Positions 8,998 through 27,613 of a DNA stretch of 64,000 bases are shown here, piece after piece. Under the pieces are notes generated by a model. The model did not search any database and was not told the DNA's origin. It saw only the letters and a program-made list of their open reading frames with translations. The DNA lies in assembly GCF_051903065.1 (NCBI RefSeq), contig NZ_CP178438.1. The stretch is one strand, 5' to 3'. Each line of letters starts with the position of its first letter. The stretch's first letter is position 1. The stretch is from Escherichia coli (GTDB taxonomy: Bacteria > Pseudomonadota > Gammaproteobacteria > Enterobacterales > Enterobacteriaceae). The position numbers and the translations under genes are program-made.

Positions 8998-9924
8998 TTA
9001 ACTGCGTGGGTTGCCGAAAATTTCTAAAAATCCGCTGATTTCCGGCCTGCGCTGGGTAAACAAGGTCACAATATCTTCTACCGCTTTGCCGCTGCCAAAT
9101 TTGCGCCATGCCAGACTCAATGGCGAAGGAGGGCGCATCGTTGGGATTACCCGGCTGACCAGTTGTTGATTATCGATCATTGACTGGCAAAGCGATTTTG
9201 GCAAAAAACCAATGCCAACGCCCGCCAGATGGGCGGCGATTTTCGTTTCCATATCAGGAACAATAATCTCTTTTTGCCCTGGCAATCGCCAGGCGACGCG
9301 TTTGGTTAAGGTGCGGGCGCTGTCTTCAATATTGACCGCCGGAAAGCGCCGCAACTGCGCTTCTGTTAGCGGCTCTTCAACGTTCGCCAGCGGATGATCC
9401 GCCGCCATGACAAATCGCCATTGCACCGATCCTAAGGGATCAAGACTAAAGGTATTTGCCAGCGCCTCAGTTCCCGTGACGCCGATAGCCAGCGAAAAAC
9501 CTTCGTACAATAGCGAGTCCCAGACGCCCATATAGATTTGTCGGGAGATGTGAAACTGGGTAAAGGGGTAACGCTCATTCAGCCACGCCAGCAACTGGGC
9601 GACGGCCTGGGGGGTGTAGAGCAGGTTGTTGATGACAATATTCACCTGGCGTTCCACGCCATCATTCACCTGTTGCAGCTCGCTTGGCATACTTTCCAGC
9701 CAGCTCAGCCAGTCTCTGGCCTGGGAAAGTAGATGCTCGCCAGCCGCTGTCAACGTCACGCTGCGAGTCGTGCGAAAAAACAGCGCCACTCCGGTATTCT
9801 CTTCCAGAAGTTTAATGCGATAACTGATCGTCGCCGTGGTTTTACATAATCGTTCTGCCGCTTTTGAAAAACTTCCTGTTTCAGCAACCGCAATGAAAGT
9901 CCGCAAGGTTTCTGGATCGAACAT
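8998..9924 (-). CDS. allS: LysR-family activator of allantoin genes
   Basis: 308-aa ORF with N-terminal LysR helix-turn-helix; divergent from allA. Confidence 0.9.
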
Positions 9925-10031
9925 CTTCAGGTATCCCCTTTTAAATCCGCAAGTTGCGTGATTTTCTTATCCTCTGATTTATCAGTATTTTTACATGATA
10001 ACCCTGTTCAATTTGTGGACTAAATCTAGTT

Positions 10032-10048
10032 TTGGAAAAATATTCCAA
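10032..10048. promoter_or_regulatory. Probable AllR operator (palindrome TTGGAA-AAATA-TTCCAA) in the allS-allA divergent region
   Basis: Perfect inverted repeat; near-identical copy upstream of gcl. Confidence 0.55.
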
Positions 10049-10153
10049 CTTTTGTGTTGATGTTGTTCTCTTAAGGTTTTAGATTGCCTGTTATTGAAAC
10101 CAAGCTGACCGGTCGGCGGTGGTTGAACGGAATTATGTTACAAGGACAAAAAG

Positions 10154-10636
10154 ATGAAACTTCAGGTATTACCGTTAAGTCAGGAAGCCTTTAGTGCTTA
10201 TGGCGACGTAATCGAAACGCAGCAACGGGATTTTTTCCATATTAACAATGGCCTGGTGGAGCGTTACCACGATTTGGCGCTGGTTGAGATTCTTGAGCAA
10301 GACCGTACGCTTATCAGCATTAACCGCGCGCAACCGGCGAATCTGCCGCTGACCATTCACGAACTCGAGCGTCATCCGCTGGGTACTCAGGCCTTTATCC
10401 CGATGAAAGGTGAGGTGTTTGTGGTGGTCGTGGCGTTAGGTGACGACAAACCAGACCTGTCAACCCTGCGGGCGTTTATTACCAACGGCGAACAGGGAGT
10501 GAATTACCATCGTAACGTCTGGCATCACCCACTTTTCGCCTGGCAGCGCGTCACCGATTTTCTGACCATCGATCGCGGCGGCAGTGACAACTGTGATGTT
10601 GAAAGTATTCCTGAACAGGAACTCTGTTTTGCGTGA
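10154..10636 (+). CDS. allA: Ureidoglycolate lyase
   Basis: 160-aa ORF at the conserved position in the allantoin cluster. Confidence 0.9.
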
Positions 10637-10713
10637 CGCCTGCAACCGACTTGCATAAGATAAACTAATTGTTCATTGTTTATGCTCACTTGTAGGTCGG
10701 AGTTAACGTAGGT

Positions 10714-11529
10714 ATGACGGAAGTTAGACGGCGCGGCAGGCCAGGACAGGCGGAGCCTGTGGCACAGAAGGGCGCACAGGCATTAGAGCGGGGAATTGCG
10801 ATTCTGCAATATCTGGAAAAAAGTGGGGGAAGTTCGTCGGTTAGCGATATTTCTCTCAATCTGGATTTGCCGCTCTCCACGACCTTTCGCTTGCTGAAGG
10901 TTTTACAGGCAGCGGATTTTGTCTATCAGGACAGTCAGTTAGGCTGGTGGCATATAGGATTAGGTGTCTTTAACGTCGGTGCAGCGTACATCCATAACCG
11001 CGATGTCCTCTCCGTCGCCGGGCCGTTTATGCGCCGCCTGATGTTACTTTCTGGCGAAACGGTCAATGTCGCGATCCGTAACGGCAATGAAGCGGTATTA
11101 ATTGGTCAGTTAGAGTGTAAATCGATGGTCAGGATGTGTGCGCCACTGGGCAGTCGTCTGCCACTGCATGCTTCCGGTGCGGGCAAAGCGCTGCTTTATC
11201 CGCTGGCGGAAGAGGAGTTGATGAGCATCATTCTGCAAACCGGTTTGCAGCAGTTTACGCCAACTACGCTTGTGGATATGCCCACCCTGCTGAAGGACCT
11301 GGAACAAGCGCGTGAACTGGGCTATACCGTAGATAAAGAAGAGCATGTTGTAGGTCTGAATTGCATAGCTTCAGCAATTTACGATGATGTGGGTAGTGTT
11401 GTTGCCGCTATCTCCATCTCCGGGCCTTCATCAAGACTGACAGAAGATCGTTTTGTCAGTCAGGGTGAGCTGGTCAGAGACACCGCCCGCGATATCAGCA
11501 CGGCGTTGGGACTGAAAGCACATCCATAA
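10714..11529 (+). CDS. allR: IclR-family repressor of the allantoin regulon
   Basis: 271-aa ORF with IclR-type helix-turn-helix and effector domain. Confidence 0.9.
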
Positions 11530-11540
11530 TGTCTATCGCA

Positions 11541-11566
11541 TCCCGCTCTGCGGAGCGGGTTTTTTT
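11541..11566 (+). terminator. Rho-independent terminator after allR
   Basis: CCCGCTC-TGCG-GAGCGGG hairpin followed by TTTTTTT. Confidence 0.7.
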
Positions 11567-11581
11567 GACAAAATTTGAAAG

Positions 11582-11598
11582 TTGGAAAATTTTTCCAA
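11582..11598. promoter_or_regulatory. Probable AllR operator in the gcl promoter (TTGGAAAATTTTTCCAA)
   Basis: Perfect palindrome just downstream of a TTGACA -35-like hexamer, upstream of the gcl SD. Confidence 0.55.
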
Positions 11599-11618
11599 TT
11601 AATGGAGGTAGGAATAAA

Positions 11619-13400
11619 ATGGCAAAAATGAGAGCCGTTGACGCGGCAATGTATGTGCTGGAGAAAGAAGGTATCACCACCGCCTTCGGTGTTCCGGGAG
11701 CTGCAATCAATCCGTTCTACTCAGCGATGCGTAAGCACGGCGGTATTCGTCACATTCTGGCGCGTCATGTGGAAGGTGCTTCGCACATGGCGGAAGGTTA
11801 TACCCGCGCAACGGCAGGGAATATCGGCGTATGTCTGGGGACTTCCGGTCCTGCGGGCACGGACATGATCACCGCGCTCTATTCTGCTTCTGCTGATTCC
11901 ATTCCTATTCTGTGCATTACCGGCCAGGCTCCGCGCGCCCGTCTGCATAAAGAAGATTTTCAGGCTGTTGATATTGAAGCAATTGCTAAACCGGTCAGCA
12001 AAATGGCGGTTACAGTACGTGAAGCGGCGCTGGTGCCTCGCGTGCTGCAACAGGCATTTCACCTGATGCGTTCTGGTCGTCCGGGTCCGGTACTGGTGGA
12101 TTTACCGTTCGACGTTCAGGTTGCGGAAATCGAGTTTGATCCTGACATGTACGAACCGCTGCCGGTCTACAAACCTGCTGCCAGCCGTATGCAGATCGAA
12201 AAAGCTGTAGAAATGTTAATCCAGGCCGAACGTCCGGTGATTGTTGCCGGGGGCGGGGTAATCAATGCTGACGCAGCTGCACTGTTACAACAGTTTGCTG
12301 AACTGACCAGCGTTCCGGTGATCCCAACGCTGATGGGCTGGGGCTGTATCCCGGACGATCATGAACTGATGGCCGGGATGGTCGGTCTGCAAACCGCGCA
12401 TCGTTACGGTAACGCAACGTTGCTGGCGTCCGACATGGTGTTTGGTATCGGTAACCGTTTTGCTAACCGTCATACCGGTTCGGTAGAGAAATACACCGAA
12501 GGGCGCAAAATCGTTCATATCGATATTGAGCCGACGCAAATTGGCCGCGTGCTGTGTCCGGATCTCGGCATTGTCTCTGATGCTAAAGCGGCGCTGACAC
12601 TGCTGGTTGAAGTGGCGCAGGAGATGCAAAAAGCGGGTCGTCTGCCGTGTCGTAAAGAATGGGTCGCCGACTGCCAGCAGCGCAAACGCACTTTGCTGCG
12701 CAAAACCCATTTCGACAACGTGCCGGTGAAACCGCAGCGCGTGTATGAAGAGATGAACAAAGCCTTTGGTCGCGATGTTTGTTATGTCACCACCATTGGC
12801 CTGTCACAAATCGCTGCGGCACAAATGCTGCATGTCTTTAAAGACCGCCACTGGATCAACTGTGGTCAGGCTGGTCCGTTAGGCTGGACGATTCCGGCGG
12901 CGCTGGGGGTTTGTGCCGCTGATCCGAAACGCAATGTGGTGGCGATTTCCGGTGACTTCGACTTCCAGTTCCTGATTGAAGAGTTAGCCGTTGGCGCGCA
13001 GTTCAACATTCCGTACATCCATGTGCTGGTGAATAACGCCTATCTCGGCCTGATTCGTCAGTCACAACGCGCCTTTGACATGGACTACTGCGTGCAACTC
13101 GCTTTCGAGAATATCAACTCCAGCGAAGTGAACGGTTACGGCGTCGACCACGTAAAAGTAGCGGAAGGTTTAGGTTGTAAAGCTATTCGCGTCTTCAAAC
13201 CGGAAGATATTGCACCGGCCTTTGAACAGGCGAAAGCCTTAATGGCGCAATATCGGGTACCGGTAGTCGTGGAAGTTATTCTCGAGCGTGTGACCAATAT
13301 TTCGATGGGCAGCGAACTGGATAACGTCATGGAATTTGAAGATATCGCCGATAACGCAGCGGATGCACCGACTGAAACCTGCTTCATGCACTATGAATAA
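11619..13400 (+). CDS. gcl: Glyoxylate carboligase (TPP enzyme)
   Basis: Track ORF starts 11529; start at MAKMRAVD with SD GGAGG gives 593 aa. Confidence 0.9.
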
Positions 13401-20935: not shown

Positions 20936-21408
20936 CTAAAAATAATCAGGCGAGTGGTATGACTTAAATCTCTACGTCGCGGTTGCAATCTTTCGAGTAA
21001 ATATAGCTGAACGCTTCACCACGCCCTACGCCATAACCAGCCTGTAAAGAATAAGCGCCCATAAAGATGTAATCGCCTTTTTTCACCGGGATCCAGTTAT
21101 TGTCGAGGTTATAAACCCCCTGACCGGAAAGAATATAGGCACCGTGTTCCTGAACGTGTGTTTCGATATAACCATGGCTGGCACCTGGTGCAAAAGAGAG
21201 GATATGCATGTTCATATCAAAACCTAACTCTTTGGGCAGAAAATCCAGCAGGATCACATCATCCATACCTTCATAGTGAATGCGTTCCAGTTCGCTGGCA
21301 TTGCCAGAAACCAGCCACGGTGCATGGCCTTCTACCAGAACATAGCGGCGCTTGGTGATGCTGCCAACTTACTGATTTAGTGTATGATGGTGTTTTTGAG
21401 GTGCTCCA

Positions 21409-21684
21409 GTGGCTTCTGTTTCTATCAGCTGTCCCTCCTGTTCAGCTACTGACGGGGTGGTGCGTAACGGCAAAAGCACCGCCGGACATCAGCGCTATCT
21501 CTGCTCTCACTGCCGTAAAACATGGCAACTGCAGTTCACTTACACCGCTTCTCAACCCGGTACGCACCAGAAAATCATTGATATGGCCATGAATGGCGTT
21601 GGATGCCGGGCAACAGCCCGCATTATGGGCGTTGGCCTCAACACGATTTTACGTCACTTAAAAAACTCAGGCCGCAGTCGGTAA
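21409..21684 (+). CDS. insA: IS1 InsA
   Basis: 91-aa ORF with zinc-finger [14 protein letters not shown]...CSHC. Confidence 0.95.
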
Positions 21685-22106
21685 CCTCGCGCATACAGCC
21701 GGGCAGTGACGTCATCGTCTGCGCGGAAATGGACGAACAGTGGGGCTATGTCGGGGCTAAATCGCGCCAGCGCTGGCTGTTTTACGCGTATGACAGGCTC
21801 CGGAAGACGGTTGTTGCGCACGTATTCGGTGAACGCACTATGGCGACGCTGGGGCGTCTTATGAGCCTGCTGTCACCCTTTGACGTGGTGATATGGATGA
21901 CGGATGGCTGGCCGCTGTATGAATCCCGCCTGAAGGGAAAGCTGCACGTAATCAGCAAGCGATATACGCAGCGAATTGAGCGGCATAACCTGAATCTGAG
22001 GCAGCACCTGGCACGGCTGGGACGGAAGTCGCTGTCGTTCTCAAAATCGGTGGAGCTGCATGACAAAGTCATCGGGCATTATCTGAACATAAAACACTAT
22101 CAATAA
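21603..22106 (+). CDS. insB: IS1 InsB' (transposase made as InsAB' by -1 frameshift)
   Basis: 167-aa ORF overlapping insA in the -1 frame. Confidence 0.9.
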
Positions 22107-22536
22107 GTTGGAGTCATTACCGCGGCGCTTATATAAAAAGATTTGGCTGTCTTCGGCCTGGGCGTTAACAAACGTCATTAAGGAGCCTGGCGGGCAATAA
22201 AGATAGCCACCTTCGCTTAAGGCAAATGTTTTGCCTTCGGCTTTGGCAGTGATATTTCCAGAGATCACATACAGGAACGTTTCAATGCCTTCGCCACCGA
22301 AGCCCTGTTGGTTGCCACCGTTTTGATGCAGTGTGACCAGATAATCAACAAAAGAGGCACCCAGCTTTGGCGTGGAGAGGATTGTCGCGTCACAATTTTC
22401 AAAGCCCGGAATAATATTTTTTACCAGACCGTCTGGTGTTAACAGTGCGAAATTACCGTGTTTCACAATCGCACGGTTAGCCAGTAAATCATCGCGGTAA
22501 CCGGTGACGTTATTTAAATATCCCATTTATGACTCC

Positions 22537-23772
22537 TTATTTCTGCCAGGCAAGTTGATAAAGCATGAGTGCCAACGTTTTGACCCCTTCGGCAAGGTCG
22601 GTAATATTGGTGCGTTCCGCCGGGTTATGGCTGATCCCGTTGATGCTGGGGATAAAAATCATGCAGGTTGGTACGCGAGGCGCGAAAATTTGCGCGTCGT
22701 GCCCGGCACCACTGTGCATCACCCGGTAATTCAGTTTTTCACTTTCACACAATTCTGTCAGGGTGGCGACCAGGTCCTTATTCATCGGCACGGGTTCTTC
22801 GTCCATCCATAAATCGATATCAATACCAATGTCCATTTCATCGCAAATCGCCCGCATGTCGTTTTCTAACTGTTGGGTGAAATCACGCAGCACGGCGGCG
22901 TCGGTATGACGACAATCAATGGTGAATGTGGTTTTACCCGGCACCACATTCACCGTATTCGGGCGCGGCTCTACTTTCCCAAAGGTCAGAACCAGCGGAT
23001 CGCCCATCTTTTTCGCTTTTTCGATCGACTGATGGCAAATGCGACTGAAAGCGTAAACCGTATCACGACGATAACCCATCGGCGTGGTGCCTGCATGGTT
23101 TGATTCGCCGTTCAGCGTCACCGTATAGCGACGTTGCCCGACAATTGCATTCACCACGCCAATTGATTGCCCATTACTTTCCAGCACACAGCCCTGTTCG
23201 ATATGCAGTTCGACAAAGGCTTTAATATCCTGACGCGGAGTTAGCGGGGCGTCCGGCAGAGTAAATCCGCAAGCCTTCATCGCATCGACAAAACTATTTC
23301 CTTTGGCATCACAGATATTCCGCACGTCGTCAGGATTCGCCAGCCCAAAGATATTTTTGCTGCCCCAGAAAACATACGGGAAGCGGCTGCCTTCTTCTTC
23401 CGCCATCGCCACCACTTCAACCGTACGTAACGGCGCGCCGTATTGCGTTTTCAACCAGTCAATTGCCAGCCACGCCGCCAGCGCGCCGAATTGCCCGTCG
23501 AGGTTACCGCCGTTAACCACGGTATCGATATGCGAACCGCTCAGAACCACTTCCTGTGGATATTCGGTGCCACTCAGGCGACCGTATAAATTCCCCACTT
23601 CATCGAAACGTGTTTCCAGCCCACTTGCGGCCATTCTTTTTTTAAATTGCTGCTGGGTTTCCAGCCATTCCGGCGAATAAAGTAAACGGGTCATCCCACC
23701 CGTTGGGTCTGCGCCAAAAGAGGAAAGCCAGGGCAGCGTTTCTTCTATGGCTTGACGAAAATGTGTAATCAT
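22537..23772 (-). CDS. allC: Allantoate amidohydrolase (M20 peptidase family)
   Basis: Track ORF to 23790; start at MITHFRQ gives 411 aa. Confidence 0.9.
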   Translation of the reverse strand: MITHFRQAIEETLPWLSSFGADPTGGMTRLLYSPEWLETQQQFKKRMAASGLETRFDEVGNLYGRLSGTEYPQEVVLSGSHIDTVVNGGNLDGQFGALAAWLAIDWLKTQYGAPLRTVEVVAMAEEEGSRFPYVFWGSKNIFGLANPDDVRNICDAKGNSFVDAMKACGFTLPDAPLTPRQDIKAFVELHIEQGCVLESNGQSIGVVNAIVGQRRYTVTLNGESNHAGTTPMGYRRDTVYAFSRICHQSIEKAKKMGDPLVLTFGKVEPRPNTVNVVPGKTTFTIDCRHTDAAVLRDFTQQLENDMRAICDEMDIGIDIDLWMDEEPVPMNKDLVATLTELCESEKLNYRVMHSGAGHDAQIFAPRVPTCMIFIPSINGISHNPAERTNITDLAEGVKTLALMLYQLAWQK

Positions 23773-23793: not shown

Positions 23794-24843
23794 TTATTGC
23801 GCAAAGGGATTTTTCGTTTCGTATGACGTGTTATAAAGCGCGTCGGAAATTAAATACTGGTAAATATCATCAACAATTTCGATGCCTTCGACGGCGGCTT
23901 TGCGTTGTTTAATATCCTGATCCTGTCCGGGATAATAAACCTGATTAAAACCGGGCGCGGGGGTAATGGCATTTAATTCGCGCATGGTCTGGCTAAGATG
24001 TTGACGGAATAATTCGCTGGAGGAGAAAAAGTTCGGGTTAATAACTACATGTAATTGCCCCAAATTACGCCCGGCGTGTAAATCGTCATACATCGAACTC
24101 ACCTGTCGCCCGAACGGTAAGCCGAGTAAGACGCCTGAGAGAACGTCAATCATCATCATCAGGCCATACCCTTTCGGCCCGGCTGCGGGGAGCAGAGCAT
24201 GTACCGCGAACGGATCGGTTGTTGGTGCACCGTTTTTATCGACCGCCCAGGTATCCGGGATAGACATATTACGCGAGCGGGCGTCGAGCACTTTTCCCCA
24301 TGCCTGTACGGTAGTCGCCATATCAAAGGTAAGGATCTCGTCGCCTTCTCCCGGCGCGGCAAAGGCCAGTGGGTTAGTACCGTAGTAAATTTCCGCGCCG
24401 CCAAACGGCACCACCATTGGATCGGACTGGCACATCGAAATGCCAATTAATCCGGCGCGGGCTGCCCGCTGCACAAAATAAGAGATTGCGCCGCTGTGAC
24501 CCATCCGGCTGATACCGACCACCGCAACGCCATTTTGCTGGGCGGTTTTGATGGCATGTTCCATACCCATTTTCGCCGCGACCTGTCCGGCGGCATTGTC
24601 GGCATGTAAAATTGCCGAGCACGGCCCGGTTTCCTCAAGACGAAACTCCGGTTCGCGGTTGGTGCCGCCTTTTGAAATGCGTTCCGCGTAGTATTCCACG
24701 CGCACCGCGCCATGAGAGTGGATCCCTCTGGCATCGGCGTAAACCAATACTTCAGCCACGGTTGCAGCGTGCTCACGTTTTAACCCAGCCTGGCAGAGTT
24801 TATTCTCAATTAGCTGGTGGAGTGTTTCCCGACTGATTTTCAT
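23794..24843 (-). CDS. allD: Ureidoglycolate dehydrogenase
   Basis: 349-aa ORF of the malate/L-lactate dehydrogenase-2 family. Confidence 0.9.
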   Translation of the reverse strand: MKISRETLHQLIENKLCQAGLKREHAATVAEVLVYADARGIHSHGAVRVEYYAERISKGGTNREPEFRLEETGPCSAILHADNAAGQVAAKMGMEHAIKTAQQNGVAVVGISRMGHSGAISYFVQRAARAGLIGISMCQSDPMVVPFGGAEIYYGTNPLAFAAPGEGDEILTFDMATTVQAWGKVLDARSRNMSIPDTWAVDKNGAPTTDPFAVHALLPAAGPKGYGLMMMIDVLSGVLLGLPFGRQVSSMYDDLHAGRNLGQLHVVINPNFFSSSELFRQHLSQTMRELNAITPAPGFNQVYYPGQDQDIKQRKAAVEGIEIVDDIYQYLISDALYNTSYETKNPFAQ

Positions 24844-25298
24844 CTGTCTTCCTTTTTAACGACGGTGTGAAGCATGACTGCAATTAACATACAGGGAAAA
24901 TATCTGGATTATGTGATCCAGACAGGCAAAAAAATATAGTTAGAATTTATTTGATAATCCGCTCGCTTTTAACCTGGTTTTTAAAACAACCACGCTTATT
25001 AAAAAATAACACGTAATAGCATGGCGGTTATTTGAATTCTTTTGTTAATAATCCCTGTGTGATATTCATCACCTTATTTACCCGTTGTCATCGATACCGT
25101 AATCGCCACATTAACACTGCTCGTGCAATTGCCATGGGTGCAATTTTTAAGGAGTTGTTATGATCCACGCCTTTATTAAAAAAGGGTGTTTTCAGGATTC
25201 GGTCAGTTTAATGATTATTTCACGAAAACTCAGCGAATCAGAAAATGTTGATGATGTTTCCGTAATGATGGGTACGCCCGCCAGGTAATGACTCCAAC

Positions 25299-25802
25299 TT
25301 ATTGATAGTGTTTTATGTTCAGATAATGCCCGATGACTTTGTCATGCAGCTCCACCGATTTTGAGAACGACAGCGACTTCCGTCCCAGCCGTGCCAGGTG
25401 CTGCCTCAGATTCAGGTTATGCCGCTCAATTCGCTGCGTATATCGCTTGCTGATTACGTGCAGCTTTCCCTTCAGGCGGGATTCATACAGCGGCCAGCCA
25501 TCCGTCATCCATATCACCACGTCAAAGGGTGACAGCAGGCTCATAAGACGCCCCAGCGTCGCCATAGTGCGTTCACCGAATACGTGCGCAACAACCGTCT
25601 TCCGGAGCCTGTCATACGCGTAAAACAGCCAGCGCTGGCGCGATTTAGCCCCGACATAGCCCCACTGTTCGTCCATTTCCGCGCAGACGATGACGTCACT
25701 GCCCGGCTGTATGCGCGAGGTTACCGACTGCGGCCTGAGTTTTTTAAGTGACGTAAAATCGTGTTGAGGCCAACGCCCATAATGCGGGCTGTTGCCCGGC
25801 AT
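25299..25802 (-). CDS. insB: IS1 InsB'
   Basis: Identical 167-aa protein to copy 1. Confidence 0.9.
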
Positions 25803-25996
25803 CCAACGCCATTCATGGCCATATCAATGATTTTCTGGTGCGTACCGGGTTGAGAAGCGGTGTAAGTGAACTGCAGTTGCCATGTTTTACGGCAGTGAGA
25901 GCAGAGATAGCGCTGATGTCCGGCGGTGCTTTTGCCGTTACGCACCACCCCGTCAGTAGCTGAACAGGAGGGACAGCTGATAGAAACAGAAGCCAC
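25721..25996 (-). CDS. insA: IS1 InsA
   Basis: Identical 91-aa protein to copy 1. Confidence 0.95.
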
Positions 25997-27613
25997 TGGA
26001 GCACCTCAAAAACACCATCATACACTAAATCAGTAAGTTGGCAGCATCACCCGCCCGCCAATAAAGCGTTATTAGATACCACAGGTTTCTGGCATGACGA
26101 TTTTAATAACGCCACGCCGAACGATATTTGCGTGGCAATTCGTAGCGAAGCGGCGGATGCGGGGATCGCGCAGGCGATTATGCAGCAGCTTGAAGAGGCG
26201 CTAAAACAACTGGCGCAGGGGTCAGGCAGCAGCCAGGCGTTGACGCAGGTGCGTCGCTGGGACAGTGCCTGTCAGAAATTACCCGATGTCAATCTGGCGC
26301 TGATTTCAGTGGCTGGCGAGTATGCGGCGGAGCTGGCGAATCAGGCGCTGGATCGCAACCTCAACGTGATGATGTTCTCCGATAACGTCACGCTGGAAGA
26401 TGAAATCCAACTTAAAACCCGCGCGCGGGAAAAAGGCTTGCTGGTGATGGGGCCGGACTGCGGTACGTCGATGATTGCCGGCACGCCGCTGGCTTTTGCT
26501 AACGTGATGCCGGAAGGCAACATTGGCGTCATTGGCGCTTCCGGTACCGGGATTCAGGAGCTGTGTTCGCAGATTGCGCTGGCAGGGGAGGGAATTACTC
26601 ACGCGATTGGCCTTGGCGGCCGCGACCTCAGCCGTGAAGTGGGCGGCATCAGTGCGCTGACGGCGCTGGAGATGCTCAGTGCAGACGAGAAAAGCGAAGT
26701 GCTGGCATTTGTTTCAAAACCACCTGCCGAAGCGGTGCTTCTGAAAATTGTTAATGCCATGAAAGCAACCGGCAAACCGACGGTGGCGCTGTTTTTAGGT
26801 TATACCCCGGCGGTGGCCCGCGACGAGAATGTCTGGTTTGCCTCCTCGCTGGATGAGGCCGCACGCCTGGCTTGCCTGCTTTCACGCGTTACGGCGCGAC
26901 GTAACGCGATAACGCCTGCCAGCAGCGGATTTATTTGCGGTTTGTATACCGGCGGTACGCTGGCTGCCGAAGCGGCGGGATTACTTGCCGGACACCTTGG
27001 CGTGGAAGCCGATGATGCCCATCATCACGGCATGATGCTCGACGCCGATGGTCACCAGATTATTGACCTCGGCGATGATTTCTACACCGTCGGGCGTCCC
27101 CATCCGATGATCGACCCAACCTTACGCAACCAGTTAATTGCCGATCTCGGCGCTAAACCGTCAGTGCGCGTATTGCTACTTGATGTCGTGATTGGCTTCG
27201 GCGCGACCGCCGATCCTGCCGCCTCGCTGGTAAGCGCCTGGCAAAAAGCCTGTGCTGCGCGTTCAGACAATCAACCACTGTATGCCATTGCCACGGTGAC
27301 AGGCACTGAACGTGACCCGCAATGCCGCTCGCAGCAAATCGCCACGCTGGAAGATGCGGGGATTGCGGTCGTGAGTTCGCTACCGGAAGCCACCTTGCTG
27401 GCGGCAGCGTTAATTCATCCGCTCTCGCCTGCCGCACAGCAACACACACCGTCATTACTGGAAAACGTCGCCGTGATTAACATCGGATTACGCAGTTTTG
27501 CGCTGGAGCTACAAAGCGCCAGCAAACCGGTTGTGCATTACCAATGGTCGCCAGTCGCCGGCGGCAATAAAAAACTGGCTCGTTTATTAGAACGTTTGCA
27601 ATAAGGGGTTCCC

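Follow-up and report, generated by a model that had tools for sequence, protein, structure and literature searches.

The operators of the repressor AllR in Escherichia coli K-12 are textbook and database knowledge, documented by RegulonDB-type data, footprints, SELEX and ChIP-seq. They are said to have been described by Rintoul and colleagues in 2002, Walker and colleagues in 2006 and Hasegawa and colleagues in 2008; the first of these studies reportedly obtained DNase I footprints on both control regions and pointed out the likeness to the operator of IclR, and the second is said to have found that AllR goes from a tetramer to a dimer with glyoxylate. In published accounts, AllR has two targets here, the control region shared by allS and allA and the promoter of gcl; glyoxylate is the inducer and allantoin a co-repressor. 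A ChIP-seq compendium has modelled AllR as highly specific, with a single strong site or a few of them. Two explicit sequences have been put forward, both with reference to Rintoul et al. 2002, namely the motif KTTGGAAWAWTWTTCCAAC in a listing by Suvorova & Gelfand 2021, and AAATCTAGTTTTGGAAAAATATTCCAACTTTTGTATT, which a passage of a 2026 paper (PMC13300388) gives as 'the AllR recognition site' of K-12. For gcl, a K-12 fragment of about 83 bp, which begins just past the stop codon of allR and runs to the Shine-Dalgarno (SD) motif of gcl, kept a reporter at the basal level expected under AllR repression.

Two related systems are useful for comparison. IclR belongs to the same regulator family as AllR and is likewise a repressor released by glyoxylate; its operator (at aceBAK and iclR) is, like the AllR sites, an AT-rich palindrome of 15-17 bp with TGGAA/TTCCA arms, but the inner arms of the IclR box read AAT-N-ATT, in contrast to AAA-N-TTT in the AllR sites, and the regulator and the regulon differ. 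In the TtgV-operator complex (PDB 2XRO), which serves as a structural precedent, an IclR-family repressor occupies some 40 bp of promoter DNA as a tetramer. TtgV is detectably related to AllR (E=1.8e-15), but its operator is longer than that of AllR and is not a simple 17-bp palindrome. The comparison of AllR with the PDB returned no AllR-DNA structure.

The present analysis concerns a stretch of 64,000 nucleotides of an E. coli chromosome (contig NZ_CP178438.1, assembly GCF_051903065.1), called the window below, in which the genes and the positions of the two AllR operators are the same as in K-12 (Table 1). The allS-allA spacer is 229 bp long and has site 1 at its middle, with 116 bp separating the site from the start codon of allS and 114 bp from that of allA; site 2 is found between the intrinsic terminator of allR and the gcl SD motif, its end 20 bp before the ATG; the ~83-bp K-12 fragment includes site 2. 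Both 17-mers were recovered with the coordinates and sequences that the original prediction had given. It had also described them as two perfect palindromes, which holds for site 2 and fails narrowly for site 1, where position 7 (A) stands opposite position 11 (A). The two sites differ from each other at two positions on the same strand, and at one if either is read on the other strand. Extended by their flanking bases, site 1 (10031-10049, TTTGGAAAAATATTCCAAC) matches the published motif at 19 of 19 positions and site 2 (11581-11599, GTTGGAAAATTTTTCCAAT) at 18 of 19, the last base being T rather than C. In an alignment with K-12 MG1655, the 17-bp core of site 1 is identical and 36 of 37 positions agree over the quoted recognition sequence, while site 2 agrees at 16 of 17 positions and differs only at the centre base (T here, A in K-12). 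These differences amount to strain-level polymorphism only.

Table 1. Coordinates of the AllR operators, the putative promoters and the surrounding genes in the 64,000-nucleotide window
Feature	Position	Strand	Sequence or elements	Remarks
AllR operator 1 (allS-allA; site 1)	10032-10048		TTGGAAAAATATTCCAA	7/8 arm pairs
AllR operator 2 (gcl; site 2)	11582-11598		TTGGAAAATTTTTCCAA	8/8 arm pairs, unpaired centre base
37-bp counterpart of K-12 'AllR recognition site'	10022-10058		AAATCTAGTTTTGGAAAAATATTCCAACTTTTGTATT in K-12	covers site 1; G for A at 10056
Putative allA promoter	10057-10085	+	-35 TTGATG 10057-10062; 17-bp spacer; -10 TAGATT 10080-10085	
Putative allS promoter	9995-10024	-	-35 TTTAGT 10024-10019; -10 TATCAT 10000-9995	
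Putative gcl promoter	11565-11593	+	-35 TTGACA 11565-11570	weak -10 inside operator 2
allS	8998-9924	-		LysR-type activator; operator 1 target; from annotation
allA	10154-10636	+		ureidoglycolate lyase; operator 1 target; from annotation
allR	10714-11529	+		IclR-family repressor encoded between both sites; from annotation, profiles and PDB
allR intrinsic terminator	11542-11566	+		also 3' end of K-12 sRNA AllZ
gcl	11619-13400	+		operator 2 target; first gene of the gcl-hyi-glxR-allW-allB-ybbY-glxK operon
allD	23794-24843	-		
allD-fdrA spacer	24844-25159			

The regulator can be named from its protein sequence: the allR product scores 619 bits on the NCBIfam equivalog NF007548 (cut-off 406), carries the Pfam domains HTH_IclR and IclR_C, and matches PDB 1TF1, described as 'negative regulator of allantoin and glyoxylate utilization operons'. 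Both sites lie in control regions of genes that have been published as AllR-repressed (allS, allA and the gcl operon). The original prediction had placed an IclR-type repressor, AllR, at both sites, and this attribution is borne out by the confirmed identity of the regulator and by the fit to the published motif and to the K-12 recognition site. We are highly confident that both inverted repeats are operators of AllR, which is encoded between them.

The two sites are the only ones of their kind in the window. When each of its roughly 64,000 positions was compared with TTGGAAAANTTTTCCAA, site 2 had no mismatch and site 1 had one, no position had two, three or four, and 16 positions had five. 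A weight matrix built from the orthologous sites described below gave 30.3 bits for site 1 and 31.7 bits for site 2, and the third-best position of the window reached 6.3 bits. Additional AllR sites were not found in the window, the next best candidates having five mismatches and 6.3 bits, and none of them lying at the promoters of the cluster. A tandem second site for a tetramer was considered, given that sites of the IclR family often have a spacing of 18-22 bp; the only candidate, TTTGACAAAATTTGAAA at 11564, has five mismatches and its centre is 18 bp from that of site 2, and it was rejected as a sequence-specific site because this stretch is not conserved across species. The allA-allR spacer contains no AllR-type site, which is consistent with allR not being autoregulated through the AllR motif. 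Autoregulation via TGCAA-N5-TTGCA (10641-10655, two mismatches to the arm pattern) was also considered and discarded, the left arm not being conserved in other genera. It should be noted that within this spacer (10641-10655, 10646-10660) the palindrome TGCAACCGACTTGCA is confined to E. coli, and the block shared across genera is CGTGACGC...ATCTTGCATAAGAT, which is probably the -35 region of the allR promoter.

A scan of representative genomes with the AllR protein retrieved 22 enterobacterial loci with an AllR identity of 66-100%, from the genera Escherichia, Citrobacter, Klebsiella, Raoultella, Superficieibacter, Buttiauxella, Izhakiella, Atlantibacter and Providencia. The window and 18 other loci were aligned, giving a set of 19 species with 38 orthologous sites. 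Every locus that includes both regions (the 18 aligned loci and L022, from Citrobacter sp. 18056) has exactly two sites with at most two mismatches in about 12.8 kb, invariably placed with one between allS and allA and one directly upstream of gcl, and the truncated loci L003 and L007 have the sites expected of them. In the spacer alignments the flanks have diverged or have been replaced by indels, and TTGGAA...TTCCAA is nearly invariant. The most variable position of both sites is the unpaired centre base (A in 13 and T in 6 species at site 1, A in 10 and T in 9 at site 2), as would be predicted if a protein dimer with two-fold symmetry occupied the site. Towards allA the spacing between site 1 and the ATG is nearly constant, at 110-115 bp in 18 of the 19 species, and towards the ATG of allS it ranges from 86 to 215 bp, so that the variable part is the leader of allS. 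One further locus, L010 (CACSKA010000001.1), is labelled 'Chryseobacterium sp. 18061' but contains an allS-allA-allR-gcl cluster of enterobacterial type that agrees in layout and in site sequences with L022, another product of that study; mislabelling or contamination of the assembly is the probable reason.

The paralogous IclR might be thought to bind these sites as well or instead, in which case the regulator of the glyoxylate shunt would cross-regulate the allantoin genes. AllR and IclR are close relatives, as the NCBIfam IclR model gives 248 bits on AllR and an IclR domain in the PDB matches it with E=1e-44, and the IclR box TGGAAATNATTTCCA differs from site 2 at only 2 of its 14 specified positions and from site 1 at 3. 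However, these mismatches fall at the inner positions by which the two motifs can be told apart, and nearly all of the 38 orthologous sites have the inner positions in the AllR form. Furthermore, the sites always accompany allR, and the literature attributes the binding to AllR. Cross-binding by IclR is thus conceivable, but improbable, and AllR is retained as the regulator that recognizes both sites.

Far less probable still is a role of the palindromes as RNA hairpins in the leaders of gcl, allA or allS, where they would act as attenuators, terminators or stability elements. The predicted folds have energies of -4.4, -5.4 and -7.1 kcal/mol with z-scores from -1.3 to -2.5, but the stems are weak, AT-rich and not followed by a T-run. 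The arms are nearly invariant in the 19 species, and their few changes are single-sided and break the pairing, with no compensatory pair among them, which argues for base-specific contacts with a protein rather than for a stem. Site 1 would moreover not be transcribed, as it is upstream of both putative transcription starts. Conservation pattern and statistics together exclude an RNA function. Finally, short inverted repeats are frequent in AT-rich intergenic DNA, but chance palindromes of this kind have next to no probability and are excluded, both by the statistics (about 0.01 sites with at most one mismatch are expected per 64-kb window in a Markov-1 simulation and two were observed, dinucleotide shuffles gave 0.18 expected matches to a looser pattern with at most two mismatches where the real sequence has two exact ones, and the mismatch counts in the window jump from one to five) and by the conservation data, which refute such an origin: the 18 other aligned species have all kept both position and sequence amid diverging flanks.

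The original prediction had further stated that site 2 overlaps the gcl promoter. The geometry deduced from the sequence and the conserved sigma-70-like hexamers favour such an overlap, the promoter elements themselves being putative. The space is narrow: the T-run of the allR terminator abuts the putative -35 hexamer, a perfect TTGACA, and of the approximately 38 bp between this T-run and the gcl SD motif the operator takes 17. The candidates for the -10 element inside the operator are AATTTT (11588-11593, with a 17-bp spacer) and the extended -10-like TGGAAAATT (11583-11591), both of them weak matches to TATAAT; the left half of the operator, which reads TGGAAAAWT, resembles an extended -10. 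Scored across the species, the -10 does best at offsets of -4 to -1 relative to the centre of the operator. Among the three top pairs listed for each species, a TTGnnn occurs at -24/-25 in about 12 of the 19. With any start site compatible with the conserved SD motif and the functional 83-bp fragment, operator 2 would fall within about -35 to +25 of the gcl promoter, and AllR would therefore have to compete with RNA polymerase. The pair TTTCCA-17-TAAAAT, which a generic promoter scan offered as the gcl promoter, was discarded as it ends inside the gcl start codon.

Several other features of the allR-gcl region deserve mention. Downstream of operator 2, changes at 11600 and 11604 (TTAATGG here versus TAAATAG in K-12) alter the -10-like TAAATA of K-12 and strengthen the gcl SD motif to GGAGG. 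The small RNA AllZ (b4831), annotated in K-12, corresponds to about 11332-11566; it is made from the 3' part of allR as far as the terminator, and its own 3' end is 16 bp upstream of operator 2. The T-run of this terminator overlaps the hexamer proposed as the -35 of gcl. For the gcl operon, the literature mentions an upstream RutR site; the RutR box TTGACCANNTGGTCAA has no match with three or fewer mismatches in the allR-gcl region.

At the allS-allA spacer the predicted allA promoter is the better defined of the two. Its hexamer pair is the top-scoring sigma-70 pair in 16 of the 19 species, at offsets of +16/17 and +39/40 from the operator centre, and both hexamers are conserved columns of the alignment. 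For allS, the minus-strand -10 at offset +40 shares the top mean score over the 19 species, but the assignment is weaker, as there are competing candidates, among them a -10 inside the operator paired with an invariant TGTGG block. If it is correct, the allS promoter would mirror the allA promoter about operator 1, and the -35 hexamers of both would start 16-17 bp on either side of the operator centre. The 37-bp recognition sequence would then reach 2-3 bp into both -35 hexamers, because the operator lies between back-to-back promoters. The TGTGG block (10014-10018) and an ATCT block (10025-10028), both on the allS side of operator 1, are invariant or near-invariant in all 19 species and are not explained by the AllR motif; they could belong to a promoter, or could be where the nitrogen-responsive control of allS mentioned in the literature is exerted.

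A mechanism can be proposed in which binding, repression and effectors are taken from the literature, and promoters and transcription starts from the geometry described above. AllR, which according to the literature binds as a tetramer, would contact each palindrome through its N-terminal helix-turn-helix domains, with one subunit per TTGGAA half-site, and its occupancy would silence the gcl operon as well as the divergent genes allS and allA. At gcl, the operator would cover the -10 element of a promoter with little room between the terminator of allR and the ribosome-binding site, so that repression would be a direct occlusion of RNA polymerase, and at allS-allA a single operator midway between two back-to-back promoters would serve both. 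On this geometry, transcription would be predicted to start near 11598-11601 for gcl, at about 10092 for allA and at about 9988 on the minus strand for allS. Glyoxylate would weaken the DNA binding of AllR and thereby lead to induction, with allantoin as the reported co-repressor.

The allD-fdrA region contains no AllR site, its best position having 6 mismatches out of 16. The original prediction had noted that no equally good copy is obvious there, had given the correct coordinates for this region, and had regarded allD as controlled mainly by AllS; the latter view agrees with the literature, which predicts no AllR site in the allD-fdrA region, reports that a deletion of allR leaves the expression of allF'-lacZ unchanged, and places the binding of AllS at -203 to -144 from the allF start (24957-25016 in the window) and that of ArcA-P at -142 to -83. 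As allS is itself under the control of AllR, the AllS-activated allD and allF operons would be controlled indirectly and would need no AllR site of their own. The spacer does contain two other inverted repeats: TTTTTAA-N14-TTAAAAA (24978-25005) is inside the published AllS EMSA fragment, and TCTGGAT-N6-ATCCAGA (24903-24922), for which no assigned factor was found, is about 60-80 bp from the allD ATG.

The window is 100% identical to the closest annotated strain, 23CRST027, up to position 22563, and the coordinate shift of 1065 bases beyond this point is due to the absence from the window of an IS903B copy of 23CRST027. Two 768-bp copies of IS1 (21354-22121 and 25284-26051) are inverted relative to each other. 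Both are simple insertions flanked by a duplicated 9-bp target, which is GCGGCGCTT for the copy in allE and CGCCCGCCA for the one in fdrA/allF. Two genes of the anaerobic branch that depends on AllS are thus disrupted, and the AllR-controlled genes and both operators are intact; the pair also flanks allC-allD and could mediate an inversion.

One property of site 1 invites a further suggestion. Its position 11 (10042) is A, giving TATTCC, in 16 of the 19 species, in contrast to the equivalent position of site 2, which is the symmetric T in 18 of 19. It is possible, albeit rather doubtful, that selection maintains the imperfection of site 1 and that operator and promoter form one co-evolving sequence. 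If this were the case, the asymmetry could tune the affinity for AllR, so that allS/allA and gcl would be derepressed at different levels of glyoxylate. Alternatively, it could serve an overlapping promoter element, operator 1 containing both AATATT and the extended -10-like TGGAAAAAT.

In summary, the feature is real, its interpretation as a pair of AllR operators is correct, and it was already known, so that the importance of the result is mainly confirmatory, in that a reader without tools recognized the sites correctly. The additions are small and comprise the conserved asymmetry of site 1 and a putative promoter layout that would be symmetric about this site. For this strain, it means that the AllR sites have remained intact in spite of the IS1 insertions that break two genes of the AllS branch, and more widely, that the clean two-site signature, which is shared across genera, could help in the annotation of allantoin clusters elsewhere in the Enterobacterales.
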